Positions 3,095 through 4,725 of a DNA stretch of 41,630 nucleotides are shown here, piece by piece. A program made the position numbers and the translations under genes. Within the stretch, counting starts at the first letter, position 1, and each line of letters starts with the position of its first letter. The DNA is from a virus, in the IMG/VR virus record IMGVR_UViG_3300015265_000006, positions 1 through 41,630 of that record; one strand, written 5' to 3'. Below the pieces are notes generated by a model. The model was not told the origin of the DNA, did not search any database, and saw only the letters and a list, made by a program, of their open reading frames with translations.

Positions 3095-3111
3095 ATCAAA
3101 CTGGAGTAAAC

Positions 3112-3936
3112 ATGAATGAGTTGGCTCTTTTCGCTGGCGTTGGTGGAGGAATACTCGGCGGCCACCTCTTGGGATGGCGCACCATCTGCGCCGTTGAGCG
3201 TGATGCCTACGCAGCACAAGTTCTGGCGCAACGACAAAACGATGGACTCCTCGAAACTTTCCCAATTTGGTCTGATGTGTGCAGTTTTGACGGAAGACCA
3301 TGGCGAGGCCTTGTTGACGTGGTTTCGGGCGGATTCCCGTGTCAGGACATATCGGCTGCCGGGAATGGTGCCGGCATTGATGGCGCCAGATCAGGGTTGT
3401 GGCGAGAAATGGGCAGAATCATCGGCGAGGTACTGCCTGAGCTCGTCTACTTGGAAAACTCACCAATGCTTGTGGGAAGAGGACTTGCCCTGGTCCTCGG
3501 TGATCTTGCCGAAATGGGGTATGACGCGCAGTGGTGCATTGTTTCAGCATCCGACGTTGGAGCGCCCCATCAGCGCGACAGGATCTGGCTTGTTGCCACG
3601 CCACTGGCAGGGGACAGCCGGAGGGGGGGATTGCCTCTCGGAGCGGATGCGACGATCGCCAAGCCTAGTGTCGGCACAGAGAAATTGGCCAACACCAGTT
3701 GCAAGCATGGCGAAGGGATCATCGCCAGCAGCGCTGACAAGGAAGTCCGGAGCGGACAGGTCAAACGATCGGCTAGACCATGCGGTGATGGCTTCGGACG
3801 GTGGGCAGCTGAACCCGGAATGGGTCGAGTGGTTAATGGACTTCCCCATCGGGTGGACAGAATTAAAGCCCTTGGCAACGCTCAAGTTCCGCGAGTGGCA
3901 GCAACAGCATTCACCATCCTCTCGATCGACGACTGA
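3112..3936 (+). CDS. dcm: DNA (cytosine-5)-methyltransferase
   Basis: Motifs seen: I FAGVGG (3130-3147), IV GFPCQ (PCQ 3337-3345), VI ENS (3454-3462), VIII QRDR (3571-3582) and X GNAQVP (3874-3891). GGAG lies 5 nt upstream of the ATG. Confidence 0.9.
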   Translation: MNELALFAGVGGGILGGHLLGWRTICAVERDAYAAQVLAQRQNDGLLETFPIWSDVCSFDGRPWRGLVDVVSGGFPCQDISAAGNGAGIDGARSGLWREMGRIIGEVLPELVYLENSPMLVGRGLALVLGDLAEMGYDAQWCIVSASDVGAPHQRDRIWLVATPLAGDSRRGGLPLGADATIAKPSVGTEKLANTSCKHGEGIIASSADKEVRSGQVKRSARPCGDGFGRWAAEPGMGRVVNGLPHRVDRIKALGNAQVPRVAATAFTILSIDD

Positions 3937-3946
3937 CGCCGCATAA
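3116..3946 (+). CDS. Fully overlapping +1-frame ORF (276 aa) with WPTP and LNPEWVEWLMDFPIGWT motifs
   Basis: ORF track. ATG 3116 is 4 nt after the dcm ATG and shares its SD. No stop for 276 codons, and it ends 10 nt after the dcm stop. The motifs resemble phage methylase-associated proteins from memory only. See findings. Confidence 0.45.
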   Translation: MSWLFSLALVEEYSAATSWDGAPSAPLSVMPTQHKFWRNDKTMDSSKLSQFGLMCAVLTEDHGEALLTWFRADSRVRTYRLPGMVPALMAPDQGCGEKWAESSARYCLSSSTWKTHQCLWEEDLPWSSVILPKWGMTRSGALFQHPTLERPISATGSGLLPRHWQGTAGGGDCLSERMRRSPSLVSAQRNWPTPVASMAKGSSPAALTRKSGADRSNDRLDHAVMASDGGQLNPEWVEWLMDFPIGWTELKPLATLKFREWQQQHSPSSRSTTDAA

Positions 3947-3988: not shown

Positions 3989-4150
3989 ATGTCATCCAAA
4001 GGAAGGCTCAGCGCCGGCTATTTGGAGTTGCACTACGGCTGCGAGATATGCGGCCGCCCGCGCACCAAAGGCAACCACGAACGCTGCTCGAAAGCACGCC
4101 AGCAAGAACACGCTAGGAGGAATAGCCATGACCACGAAACTGTCGCCTGA
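3989..4150 (+). CDS. Small hypothetical Cys/His protein (53 aa)
   Basis: GGGAGG lies 4 nt upstream of ATG 3989. Translation MSSKGRLSAGYLELHYGCEICGRPRTKGNHERCSK... Overlaps the next gene by 23 nt. Below the ORF-track cutoff. Confidence 0.3.
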   Translation: MSSKGRLSAGYLELHYGCEICGRPRTKGNHERCSKARQQEHARRNSHDHETVA

Positions 4151-4430
4151 CTCGATCGGGCTGATTTTCACGATGCACGCAGCCGGGCACCCTGCAGAAA
4201 ACATCGCTGATGCGGCCGGCTGCGCGTACTCGACGGTTATCCGCTACCTGAATGCGGCTGGGATCAAGTTGGGGAACAAGGGCAAGCCGCGCCAGTGCAC
4301 TGAGCAGTACCTCTCGATGGCGCAGAACATGCGCGCCAATGGCTCGACTTGGTACGAGGTGGAGCGGCACATCGGCTTCCACCGCTCAACGTTCCATGCG
4401 CGGCTCAGGGCCGAGAGGGCTTCGACATGA
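4128..4430 (+). CDS. Hypothetical HTH DNA-binding protein
   Basis: ORF track, 100 aa. HTH-like ENIADAAGCAYSTVIRYL. AGGAGG lies upstream. Confidence 0.6.
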   Translation: MTTKLSPDSIGLIFTMHAAGHPAENIADAAGCAYSTVIRYLNAAGIKLGNKGKPRQCTEQYLSMAQNMRANGSTWYEVERHIGFHRSTFHARLRAERAST

Positions 4431-4494
4431 TCATCAAGTACGGACTGCTCTGCATCGTCACCTTCTGGCTTCCGCTGGGCTATTGGATCCTGTC

Positions 4495-4725
4495 ATGAGC
4501 GGCTGGATTGATTGCTGCGAAAGGATGCCAGAGGTCAATTTGAACGGCCCAAAGTACGCACAGCGCGTTCGGGTGATTGCCGGCAACTCCCGATACGTCG
4601 GCGAACTTGAGTACGGCACCAACGCCTACGCAGGCCGCGCTGACCTCCACTGGCAGCAGTCAAACGGCCGCGAATCTGTCTGGACGCCAACCCACTGGCA
4701 ACCGCTCCCGGAGTGCCCGAGATGA
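4495..4725 (+). CDS. DUF551-like protein
   Basis: In-frame ATG 4495 within ORF 4252..4725, ATGA-coupled to a 23-aa micro-ORF (4427-4498). WIDCCERMPE...THWQPLPECP is the DUF551-type pattern. Confidence 0.6.
   Translation: MSGWIDCCERMPEVNLNGPKYAQRVRVIAGNSRYVGELEYGTNAYAGRADLHWQQSNGRESVWTPTHWQPLPECPR

Follow-up and report, generated by a model that had tools for sequence, protein, structure and literature searches.

M.EcoHK31I was reportedly described by Lee, Kam and Shaw in 1995. Two later accounts present this enzyme of Escherichia coli HK31 (YGGCCR) as a natural heterodimeric C5-methyltransferase, with the beta polypeptide read in a second frame from within the gene for alpha; alpha carries motifs I–VIII and X, beta carries motif IX, and the target recognition domain (TRD) is stated to lie in alpha (PMC2836561; PMC3404938). 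According to the former, alpha without beta is inactive and the assembly of alpha with beta was shown experimentally (PMC2836561). M.AquI is a split C5-methyltransferase in which an overlapping second ORF lies in the +1 frame, and its division is linear, alpha containing motifs I–VIII plus some of the TRD, and beta what remains of the TRD with motifs IX and X. Programmed-frameshift genes such as dnaX, prfB and the phage tail chaperone G/GT also feed a conserved protein sequence from two frames. To our knowledge, bacteria and their phages very rarely show conserved overlaps of whole genes on the same strand, and a literature search for cytosine methyltransferases of phages with such an overlap or with frameshifting found nothing specific.

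We analysed a window of 41,630 nucleotides (positions 1 to 41,630 of IMG/VR virus record IMGVR_UViG_3300015265_000006), in which a pair of ORFs on one strand, overlapping from end to end, probably encodes a two-subunit DNA (cytosine-5) methyltransferase. As in M.EcoHK31I, one stretch of DNA read on the same strand in two frames would give two polypeptides of a single C5-methyltransferase: the second ORF occupies the +1 frame within the alpha gene, motifs I–VIII and X fall in the alpha frame and motif IX in the beta frame, and the N-terminal part of beta appears dispensable or weakly constrained. In contrast to M.EcoHK31I, which is compared here by description, the second ORF is not internal but spans the whole gene (276 versus 274 codons) from a start 4 nt from that of alpha, and codon-level selection and likeness to phage DLane place the TRD in the second frame. 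Whereas M.EcoHK31I belongs to a restriction-modification (R-M) pair, the present family is phage or prophage borne and apparently orphan, outside any such pair; in E. coli the gene occurs in 4 of 5426 genomes, always in prophage context. The overlapping +1 ORF is shared with M.AquI but the linear split is not, since motif X is back in the alpha frame, so that the division follows structural domains. The frameshift genes share the use of two frames for conserved protein sequence, but here both frames are open end to end, each has its own start, and the same nucleotides are selected in both.

Layout and conservation of the two reading frames

Frame A (positions 3112–3936, + strand) is a stop-free ORF of 274 aa, proposed to encode the alpha or catalytic subunit, and frame B (3116–3946, +) is a stop-free ORF of 276 aa, proposed to encode the beta or target-recognition subunit; the third + frame is interrupted by 17 stops within this span. 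The tandem overlapping starts, ATGAATG (3112–3118, +), are supplied by ATGAATGAG at 3112, the source of both ATG(A) (3112) and ATG(B) (3116). A Shine-Dalgarno core, GGAG (3103–3106, +), ends 5 nt upstream of ATG(A) and 9 nt upstream of ATG(B), a position that suits both. The original prediction had pointed out the two starts behind a single GGAG and the uninterrupted frame B, and these are confirmed in the sequence, as is the position of every peptide that it quoted.

The start ATGAATGAG is found in 135 of 138 non-identical loci, a count which, like the sampling of loci, is biased by a scan pattern that contained MNELALFA; the remaining three begin with GTGAATGAG, giving GTG for A and ATG for B. 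A Shine-Dalgarno core is recognisable in 111 of the 138, and in 99 of these it ends 4–5 nt before ATG(A), which is 8–9 nt before ATG(B). An independent tandem arrangement, ATGTCATGG, in which the B start comes first and the A start 5 nt later, is observed in three loci (L032, L117 and L120). The N-terminus of frame B is conserved as MSWLFSxAL, and in these three loci MSWL(F/I)S is written in other Ser codons over a different frame-A sequence. A change of ATGAATGAG to ATGAACGAG is silent in frame A (Asn) and removes ATG(B).

This layout is shared by over 150 loci of phages and prophages, in which usually a single frame is annotated, and the contigs that carry it represent Proteobacteria, Verrucomicrobia, Planctomycetes, Chloroflexi and Bacteroidetes. 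Of 158 loci fetched via frame-A homology, 147 (~93%) keep both frames open and close them with stops no more than 100 nt apart, and the third frame of the homologous loci contains 8–33 stops in nearly all cases. These loci are not copies of one sequence, as identity falls to 45%. When the synonymous codons of the selected frame were resampled in 129 homologues, 4.1 stops were expected in frame B over the N-terminal part and 4.4 in frame A over the middle, with a probability of zero stops of ~2% per segment per sequence. The openness of both frames is selected, and the argument in the original prediction that chance was an unlikely explanation is borne out: about four stops per segment are expected, yet frame B stays stop-free alongside frame A in relatives of the locus.

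Separate searches of a protein database with the two translations returned at least 8000 homologues for frame A, the named ones among those listed being nearly all “DNA cytosine methyltransferase”, and more than 4000 for frame B at E ≤ 0.001. Most of the 120 frame-B homologues listed cover 96–100% of the query; the homologues all lack a Pfam domain and are “hypothetical” wherever named, and a search of Pfam and NCBIfam with frame B itself matched no family. The candidate recognition subunit is left unannotated or as a “hypothetical protein” because pipelines keep a single frame, although in one locus (L004) it is frame B that is the annotated ORF.

Division of the methyltransferase motifs between the frames

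Frame A encodes motif I, FAGVGG (3130–3147, +), motif IV, GFPCQ (3331–3345, +), motif VI, ENS (3454–3462, +), and motif VIII, QRDR (3571–3582, +), followed by an unselected linker and then by motif X, ALGNAQVPRVAATAFTIL, which includes GNAQVP (3868–3921, +) and is overprinted with the frame-B tail KFxEWxxxH. The catalytic motifs I, IV, VI and VIII thus lie in one polypeptide, as in PF00145, which matches residues 4–163 only (E=4e-29; 102 bits, cutoff 22). TIGR00675 likewise extends to residue 163 only, with a score of 74.7 that is below its cutoff of 100.65; phrog_363 matches the full length of frame A (3.5e-64). M.HhaI chains were matched by profile over motifs I–VIII (E=7e-20). The original prediction of an ORF of 274 aa at this position holds, but not its “full C5-MTase motif set”, as frame A has no recognisable TRD and no motif IX; that frame A alone is without these parts follows from the single-chain actinophage relatives, which hold the same parts in one frame. 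In neither frame of the locus are the TRD and motifs IX and X all combined with motifs I–VIII in a single polypeptide.

Motif IX, LNPEWVEWLMDFPIGWTELKPL, is encoded in frame B (3809–3874, +), with LNPEWVEWLMDFPIGWT falling within the same span. Frame B residues 67–221 match phrog_1008, “DNA methyltransferase” (1.5e-16), and residues 228–265 match phrog_26627. In AF2 models built from shallow alignments the mean pLDDT is 59 for frame A and 54 for frame B. Block means over frame A residues 1–170 are mostly 70–85, with four ten-residue blocks at 51–61, and pLDDT is below 50 over residues 180–258, reaching 30–36 in the linker that overlaps the TRD. In frame B the ten-residue blocks over residues 101–130 average 70–80, declining to ~60 by residue 150, and the sole confidently folded part of the model is the segment encoded by the first of the dual-constrained stretches described below. 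Confidence is low outside residues 1–170 of frame A and 100–145 of frame B, so these shallow-alignment models lend no structural support to the folding of the frame-B domain or of the C-terminal part of frame A.

Codon-position diversity from 138 loci and difference counts from 51 independent pairs show that the selected frame changes along the gene in the order A, B, A. Over 3121–3429 (+), which contains motifs I and IV, frame A is selected and frame B is open and mostly unconstrained: the differences at A codon positions 1/2/3 number 465/205/1153 (51 pairs), and 1073 changes are synonymous in A only versus 278 in B only. Local frame-B constraints are nevertheless present in this segment (Phe3286, TTT 94%; Val3313, GTT 95%; Arg3232, xGA 89%). 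The frame-B leader of ~105 codons shows little protein-level constraint, which counts against a two-subunit model. In contrast, frame B is selected over 3598–3799 (+), which encodes a TRD with PTPxA repeats: differences at A positions 1/2/3 are 1085/611/569, A position 1 being B position 3, and changes synonymous in B only number 866 versus 368 in A only (51 pairs). Frame A is open here as an unselected linker that is predicted to be disordered, and the TRD/linker region varies in length among the loci, from 52 to 205 codons. Frame B remains dominant over 3800–3875 (260/126/122), whereas the counts of 101/61/224 from 3876 onward identify frame A as the selected frame. By these counts frame A is not a complete methyltransferase with an additional frame in its shadow, since over ~3598–3875 it is frame B that is selected and that carries the ancestral TRD and motif IX.

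Dual constraint is evident in three stretches. The first (3430–3597, +) encodes motifs VI–VIII in frame A and RYD..SSxWKTxQC and LPKWGMTRxG..SGLWP in frame B; frame-A codons here are fixed to the single synonym that preserves the frame-B residue, as seen at Gly3517 (GGG 99%, background 13%), Ala3508 (GCC 100%, background 37%), Arg3433 (CGA 98%, background 40%) and Val3451 (GTG 100%, background 20%). In the second (3800–3875, +), which encodes motif IX in frame B and WxxEPxxGRVxxGxxxRVDR(I/L)K in frame A, it is the frame-B third positions that are limited so that frame-A residues survive. Thus Val3824 is GTC or GTA in 100% (background GTG 41%) and Thr3857 is ACC or ACA in 98%, each preserving a frame-A Arg, Gly3800 is GGT in 80% (background 11%), preserving the frame-A Trp3802, and Pro3869 is CCC or CCA in 97%, preserving the frame-A Leu or Ile. 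The third stretch (3876–3912) again shows site-specific fixation of unusual synonymous codons, Val3895 (GTG 99%) and Ala3907 (GCA 92%) preserving Trp and His in frame B. Unusual synonymous codons that preserve the other frame are fixed at no fewer than 12 sites, which indicates overprinting with purifying selection on both frames, and, on a point that the original prediction proposed to check, the synonymous sites of frame A are abnormally conserved, site by site, within the dual-constrained stretches. This fixation requires each nucleotide in the three stretches to be read in both frames, which favours two full-length polypeptides from tandem starts over a product of two frameshifts.

The original prediction also held that the nucleotides at about 3823–3862 encode a conserved motif in each frame. 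This is correct for frame B, but GRVVNGLPHRVDR of frame A is mostly a shadow of the frame-B sequence EWLMGWPxGWT, only a few frame-A residues (Arg 3826, Arg 3859 and Trp 3802) being maintained by selection on their own frame; that both were taken as conserved can be ascribed to the thousands of calls of each frame held in databases.

Single-chain relatives and a two-subunit model

Sequence comparison shows homology between the middle of frame B and the TRD and motif IX that single-chain relatives carry in frame. Frame B residues 171–203 share 55% identity with the TRD that lies in frame in Mycobacterium phage DLane gp65, and the C-terminal end of a hybrid sequence, with motif IX from frame B and motif X from frame A, is collinear with the IX...X region of DLane, PFR1 and Phanphagia (z = 7.3 to 12.3). 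PF00145 reaches model position 312 of 324 on Propionibacterium phage PFR1 gp45. Along the DNA the elements keep the order VIII, TRD, IX, X, but no single frame holds all motifs as in monomeric C5-methyltransferases (M.HhaI, M.HaeIII) and in DLane gp65 and PFR1 gp45, and the spacer between motifs IX and X is 9 residues shorter and crosses the change of frame. Nucleotides 3493–3608 show 73–80% identity to Mycobacterium, Gordonia and Propionibacterium phages, and the frame-B motif of the first dual-constrained stretch is also found in the +1 frame of actinophage methyltransferase genes.

We propose that ribosomes initiate at either of the two starts, 4 nt apart, using one Shine-Dalgarno sequence. 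Frame A would give alpha, comprising the AdoMet-binding and catalytic large domain (motifs I–VIII), a disordered linker and a C-terminal motif X helix. Frame B would give beta, in which the MSWLFSxAL N-terminus and a largely unconstrained leader would be followed by a small beta-rich module (SWKTxQC...LPKWGMTRxG), the PTPxA-repeat TRD and motif IX, the last two together forming the small domain of a C5-methyltransferase. Alpha and beta would then assemble into the active enzyme, as in M.EcoHK31I. From the codon-level evidence we infer that both frames are translated, with approximately 1:1 synthesis on the same mRNA and formation of a heterodimer, and that both polypeptides would be needed for methylation. 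Of the alternatives offered in the original prediction, conservation and dual constraint support the first, true dual coding from tandem starts; its overall interpretation holds for dual coding but not for frame A as a complete enzyme. On balance, though with some reserve, we extend this model to the whole cross-phylum phage family, which would be an obligate alpha/beta C5-methyltransferase encoded by ~830 nt in two frames with tandem starts, ownership alternating by domain (the large domain in A, the small domain in B) and the two chains being made side by side on one mRNA.

Alternative readings and wider occurrence

A single hybrid chain containing motifs I–VIII, the TRD, IX and X would require two recoding events, a +1 shift after motif VIII (~3595–3598, between WLVA and TP) and a -1 shift after motif IX (~3865–3868, A_AAG). 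Such a chain would follow the path of strongest selection (A, B, A) and would be collinear with the single-frame actinophage methyltransferases, but it leaves unexplained the stop-free first 160 codons of frame B and the 50–200 codons of the frame-A middle, the conserved start and N-terminus of frame B, and the constraint in both frames at 3430–3597 and 3800–3912, which a chain read once cannot produce. Three exceptional loci would fit a frameshifted single chain and count against two subunits: in L160 the first junction is hard-wired, the N-terminal part of frame A being fused in frame to the middle of frame B, and in L103 and L109 frame A is closed by a TAA lying four codons downstream of motif VIII, although substitutions in the motif X region are still of the frame-A type (8 of 13 at position 3). 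AAAG is a known bacterial -1 slip motif and in the window it occupies the second junction, but it is found in only ~80–85% of loci and is absent from L001, L002 and L014 as well as from L103, L109 and L160, and the first junction is without a conserved +1 slippery site or in-frame stop. RNAalifold, applied downstream of the junctions, gave 0 pairs at the first and 9 invariant pairs at the second (-5.3 kcal/mol) without covariation, and two inefficient shifts in series would give a very low yield. With no conserved slip site or structure, and with dual constraint, the frameshift hybrid that the original prediction listed as an alternative is disfavoured, and we regard it as unlikely. Homology searches with hybrid sequences are uninformative for motifs IX and X: an artificial A-B-A hybrid scores 102.3 bits against Pfam, versus 102.4 for frame A alone, with a model that is insensitive to the short C-terminal end, and a profile of 32 hybrids finds M.HhaI and M.HaeIII as its best PDB matches, covering motifs I–VIII only, with weak DNMT3A matches (E ~1e-4) that reach position 248 of 267.

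It is unlikely that frame A alone is an active methyltransferase and frame B an overprinted protein of unrelated role, such as a regulator or an anti-defence protein. Annotation pipelines all name frame A the methyltransferase, and frame B falls into no Pfam or NCBIfam family and has a leader and tail without counterpart in single-chain methyltransferases; yet motif IX is absent from frame A, which is also left without a recognition domain since no selected frame-A sequence lies between motif VIII and ~3800, while the selected middle of frame B is homologous to sequences of DLane and PFR1, namely their in-frame TRD repeats and motif IX. M.EcoHK31I, in which alpha is inactive without beta, argues in the same direction (PMC2836561). 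It is highly improbable that an untranslated frame B is open merely as a by-product of composition, codon bias or copied indels. The sequences are moderately GC-rich, and gene callers choose either frame (frame B in L004), which could inflate apparent “families”, but the third frame of the same sequences has 8–33 stops, the probability of zero stops is ~0.02 per segment, synonymous codons are fixed site by site so as to preserve frame B, and frame B is itself selected over 3598–3875. The compensating indels or annotation artefact suggested in the original prediction are rejected because the layout is found in more than 150 independent assemblies, both isolates and metagenome contigs, from many taxa.

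A run of seven G residues (3623–3629, +), encoding GGG in frame B inside the variable recognition region, was considered as a site of slippage or phase variation and rejected, as the homologue columns are gapped or variable. Four loci (L055, L156, L091 and L130) were likewise rejected as natural hybrids; they carry either indels beside motif I's GGN-GGN-GGN run or nonsense mutations in catalytic motifs, and are most likely errors or pseudogenes.

If the two-subunit model is correct for the family, thousands of frame-B “hypothetical proteins” would be missing recognition subunits, and M.EcoHK31I, a single experimental oddity, would be generalised into a widespread design; the placement of the TRD here suggests that its assignment in M.EcoHK31I may merit re-examination. 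On the two-subunit reading, specificity predicted from frame A alone would be meaningless, and codon optimisation or other recoding of a frame-A construct would abolish the second subunit, the enzyme made from it being probably inactive. The more than 150 loci would also serve as natural replicates for the study of two proteins co-evolving on one sequence.

In actinophages, an independent lineage, the same enzyme is encoded by gene pairs in which a +1-frame gene overlaps one in the 0 frame, both annotated “DNA methylase” (Phanphagia gp65/gp66 and Wizard007 gp76/gp75). Taken with these pairs, the two-subunit model, if true, would mean that many phage “orphan” single-gene cytosine methyltransferases are two-subunit enzymes. 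The actinophage +1 ORFs resemble frame B in their FSxTxPxSGMTRxG...LPTP module, PTPxA repeats and EWMMGWP motif IX. Phanphagia and Wizard007 fit the linear split (alpha with motifs I–VIII; beta with the TRD, IX and X), which the window locus does not, and their annotated overlap ranges from 11 nt (Wizard007) to ~250 nt (Phanphagia), whereas here it is complete. A gp66-like protein occurs in 578 phage records, and two methylase genes are annotated in most of the 40 that were sampled.

Two open frames at the cytosine methyltransferase locus

At 3112 the sequence ATGAATGAG supplies two start codons spaced 4 nt apart, with GGAG upstream at 3103-3106. Two stop-free plus-strand ORFs begin here, frame A (3112-3936, 274 aa) and frame B (3116-3946, 276 aa), while the third forward frame carries 17 stops across the locus. 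Re-reading of the window sequence therefore bears out the tandem starts and paired open frames of the original prediction. A blastn search retrieved four diverged phage homologues (Acinetobacter, Salmonella and Pseudomonas phages and a spring metagenome; 74-80% nucleotide identity), all with both frames open and one with frame B as the annotated gene. Homology to frame A brought in a further 160 loci, of which 158 were usable, drawn from viral contigs and one genome per species, with amino-acid identity down to 45%. They represent Pseudomonas, Acinetobacter, Pantoea, Chromobacterium, Nitrosomonas, Bradyrhizobium, Akkermansia, Planctomycetes, Anaerolineales and Flavobacteriales. Both frames run from tandem starts to stops no more than 100 nt apart in 147 of the 158, so frame B does stay stop-free in homologous loci, and in nearly every one of these the third frame contains 8-33 stops. 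Because MNELALFA was among the scan patterns, the sample overstates how conserved the exact start is.

Resampling of synonymous codons in the selected frame gives an expectation of ~4.1 stops in frame B across the first 161 codons, and of ~4.4 in frame A across the middle segment (probability of none ~0.02 in each case). Given this expectation, the openness of both "shadow" segments, read in the unselected frame, is maintained by selection. The two-frame openness at 3112-3946 is confirmed as a real, strongly conserved feature. In 3112-3936 and its homologues, stops in the third forward frame exceed the number expected from synonymous resampling (N part, 9.9 observed and 6.5 expected; middle, 6.5 observed and 3.9 expected), and frame-A codon usage is unusual for the hosts (GTT 52%, GGA 44%, CGA 40%); both are probably the price of frame B staying open.

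Division of the conserved motifs between the frames

Frame A matches the C5-methyltransferase (C5-MTase) model PF00145 (4e-29) only over residues 4-163, and its TIGR00675 score is under the cutoff for that model. Motifs I, IV, VI and VIII are present, with motif X at the end of the frame. Frame A had been credited with the full motif set; this holds for I-VIII and X, but the target-recognition domain (TRD) and motif IX sit in frame B. Pfam and NCBIfam scans of frame B returned no family, and its PHROG matches include one family named DNA methyltransferase.

In codon alignments of 138 non-identical loci, nucleotide diversity is highest at frame-A position 3 from 3112 to ~3590 (selected frame A), at frame-A position 1, which is frame-B position 3, from ~3598 to ~3871 (selected frame B), and again at frame-A position 3 from 3876 onwards (selected frame A). 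The pattern is confirmed in 51 phylogenetically independent pairs, where differences at frame-A positions 1/2/3 number 465/205/1153 in 3121-3429, 404/215/602 in 3430-3597, 1085/611/569 in 3598-3799, 260/126/122 in 3800-3875 and 101/61/224 in 3876-3921. Junction 1, the switch to B after motif VIII, maps to 3594-3598 (A ...RDRIW(I/L)VA; B G-L-(W/L)-P-T-P), and junction 2, the return to A after motif IX, to 3871-3876. Taken together, these data trace the path of strongest selection from A to B to A. Frame A thus encodes the large domain of a C5-MTase (motifs I-VIII plus X), and frame B the small domain, comprising the PTPxA-repeat region (TRD) and LNPxWVEWLMGWPxGWT (motif IX).

A single frame contains I-VIII, PTPxA repeats, F.EWMMG.P.G and LR..GNG..PQ in Mycobacterium phage DLane gp65 and in Propionibacterium phage PFR1 gp45, and the Pfam alignment of PFR1 reaches model position 312 of 324. 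With the DLane TRD, which is in frame, frame B shares 55% identity over residues 171-203. The C-end of an artificial A-B-A hybrid is collinear with IX...X of DLane (z = 7.3), PFR1 (z = 12.3) and Phanphagia (z = 8.2), with a spacer 9 residues shorter than in single-frame relatives, whereas either frame alone aligns more poorly (z = 3-6). By this likeness, the ancestral module for recognition and motif IX is the middle of frame B. Frame A from motif VIII to ~3800 is an unselected linker of 52-205 codons among loci, predicted by AF2 to be disordered.

Frame-A synonymous sites, whose abnormal conservation had been proposed as a check, are indeed constrained at specific positions. Within 3430-3597, which also codes for the essential motifs VI-VIII of frame A, Gly3517 (residues carry window coordinates) is GGG at 99% against a background of 13%, Ala3508 GCC at 100% (37%), Arg3433 CGA at 98% (40%) and Val3451 GTG at 100% (20%), choices that keep the frame-B motifs RYD..SSxWKTxQC and LPKWGM. 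Within 3800-3875 it is frame-B codons that are restricted: Val3824 (GTC or GTA 100%, background GTG 41%) and Thr3857 (ACC or ACA 98%, background 44%) keep frame-A Arg, Gly3800 (GGT 80%, background 11%) keeps Trp3802, and Pro3869 (CCC or CCA 97%, background 49%) keeps Leu/Ile. In the tail, frame-A Val3895 (GTG 99%, background 20%) and Ala3907 (GCA 92%, background 37%) keep frame-B Trp and His.

Two chains or one recoded chain

The best-supported mechanism, which we consider likely, is translation of two completely overlapping frames into the two subunits of one methyltransferase. Both ORFs would yield polypeptides, and the two chains would assemble and both be needed for activity. Shadow openness, dual-frame constraint on the same nucleotides and an independent frame B start all favour this reading. 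A Shine-Dalgarno core is recognisable in 111 loci; in 99 of these the distance from its end is 4-5 nt to ATG(A) and 8-9 nt to ATG(B). In three loci A starts with GTG and B with ATG. In three others (L032, L117 and L120) the B ORF opens with MSWL(F/I)SRAL, 13 codons ahead of motif I; this peptide is specified by different Ser codons over unrelated frame-A sequence, and the two starts stand in tandem here as well, ATGTCATGG (L032, 1480-1510), A following 5 nt after B. The frame B start is thus a feature in its own right. These start regions show a ~39-nt duplication-like insertion, which places MSWLxSRAL ahead of the usual ..LAEEY shadow of motif I.

The main rival, a doubly frameshifted single chain, is in our judgement improbable. 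Such a chain needs neither the first 160 codons of frame B nor the frame-A linker to be open, yet both are kept open, which argues for two chains; nor does it sit well with nucleotides constrained in A and B simultaneously, or with a frame B start that behaves as a separate conserved feature. Junction 1 is without a slip motif, AAAG occurs at junction 2 in only ~80-85% of loci, and RNAalifold found no conserved structure downstream of either junction. Some recoding is nevertheless favoured by an Akkermansia MAG locus (L160, ~1980-2000), in which the frame-A N part is joined in frame to the frame-B middle exactly at junction 1 (..RKRMWVLA-TPPVIHN..), with motif X still in the -1 frame. It is favoured also by two diverged metagenome contigs, L103 (625-630) and L109, 88.6% identical, which share a TAA in frame A codon 166, four codons past motif VIII. 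Downstream of this stop the motif X region is conserved, 8 of 13 differences falling at frame-A position 3, for which the two-subunit model does not account.

Actinophage gene pairs, known enzymes and neighbouring genes

Most of 40 sampled records, from 578 actinophage records with a Phanphagia gp66-like protein, have two adjacent genes annotated "DNA methylase". Phanphagia gp65 (I-VIII) and gp66 (+1 frame; TRD, IX and X) overlap by 250 nt. Wizard007 gp76 stops 6 codons past motif VIII, and the +1 ORF of gp75 is open for ~60 codons before its annotated GTG, as also in L165, L166 and L167. In Mycobacterium phage Wizard007 (L168, 830-1022) this upstream stretch codes for FSGTFPTSGMTRSG...SSLLPTP, the module that frame B has at residues 128-161. 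A module FSxTFPTSGMTRSG...SSLLPTP is conserved in L165-L168, overlying motifs VI-VIII of the first gene, and the annotated second-gene starts in these pairs are probably too late. By blastn, actinophage genomes align to the window only over the dual-coded stretch 3493-3608 (73-80% identity). These pairs, an independent lineage, likewise speak for two chains.

Two natural two-chain C5-MTases, M.AquI and M.EcoHK31I, are described in passages of PMC2836561 and PMC3404938. M.AquI has I-VIII plus a portion of the TRD in alpha and the remaining TRD with IX-X in beta, a linear split that the actinophage pairs resemble. According to the same passages (citing Lee, Kam & Shaw 1995), M.EcoHK31I, whose beta chain is encoded in a different frame within the alpha gene, has I-VIII, X and the predicted TRD in alpha and motif IX in beta, both chains are needed, and alpha-silent removal of the beta start codons abolishes methylation. 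Compared by published description, the family in the window is alike in its division of motifs, but differs in its whole-gene overlap, tandem starts behind one Shine-Dalgarno and recognition region selected in the second frame. A search of the open-access literature found no description of this whole-gene two-frame arrangement. Two-chain C5-MTases in overlapping frames are known but very rare, and the present arrangement differs from those described.

A frame-A protein identical to the one here is recorded from a 41,648-nt JGI/ENA contig, so that the window amounts in essence to one complete metagenomic phage-like contig. The neighbouring genes form a phage early recombination module, with a Bet/RecT-like protein, a RecE-like exonuclease and small DNA-binding proteins. 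Within 1076-2453, the ORFs of the Bet/RecT-like annealing protein (1076-1840) and of the exonuclease (listed from TTG at 1572) share ~270 nt; the real exonuclease start is probably further downstream. Within 3989-4725, the start of a DNA-binding ORF (4128-4430) lies inside a small Cys-rich ORF (3989-4150; CxxC...C, phrog_17140). The DNA-binding ORF in turn overlaps ORF 4252-4725 by ~180 nt in a different frame; PHROG matches of the latter are confined to its C-terminal half.
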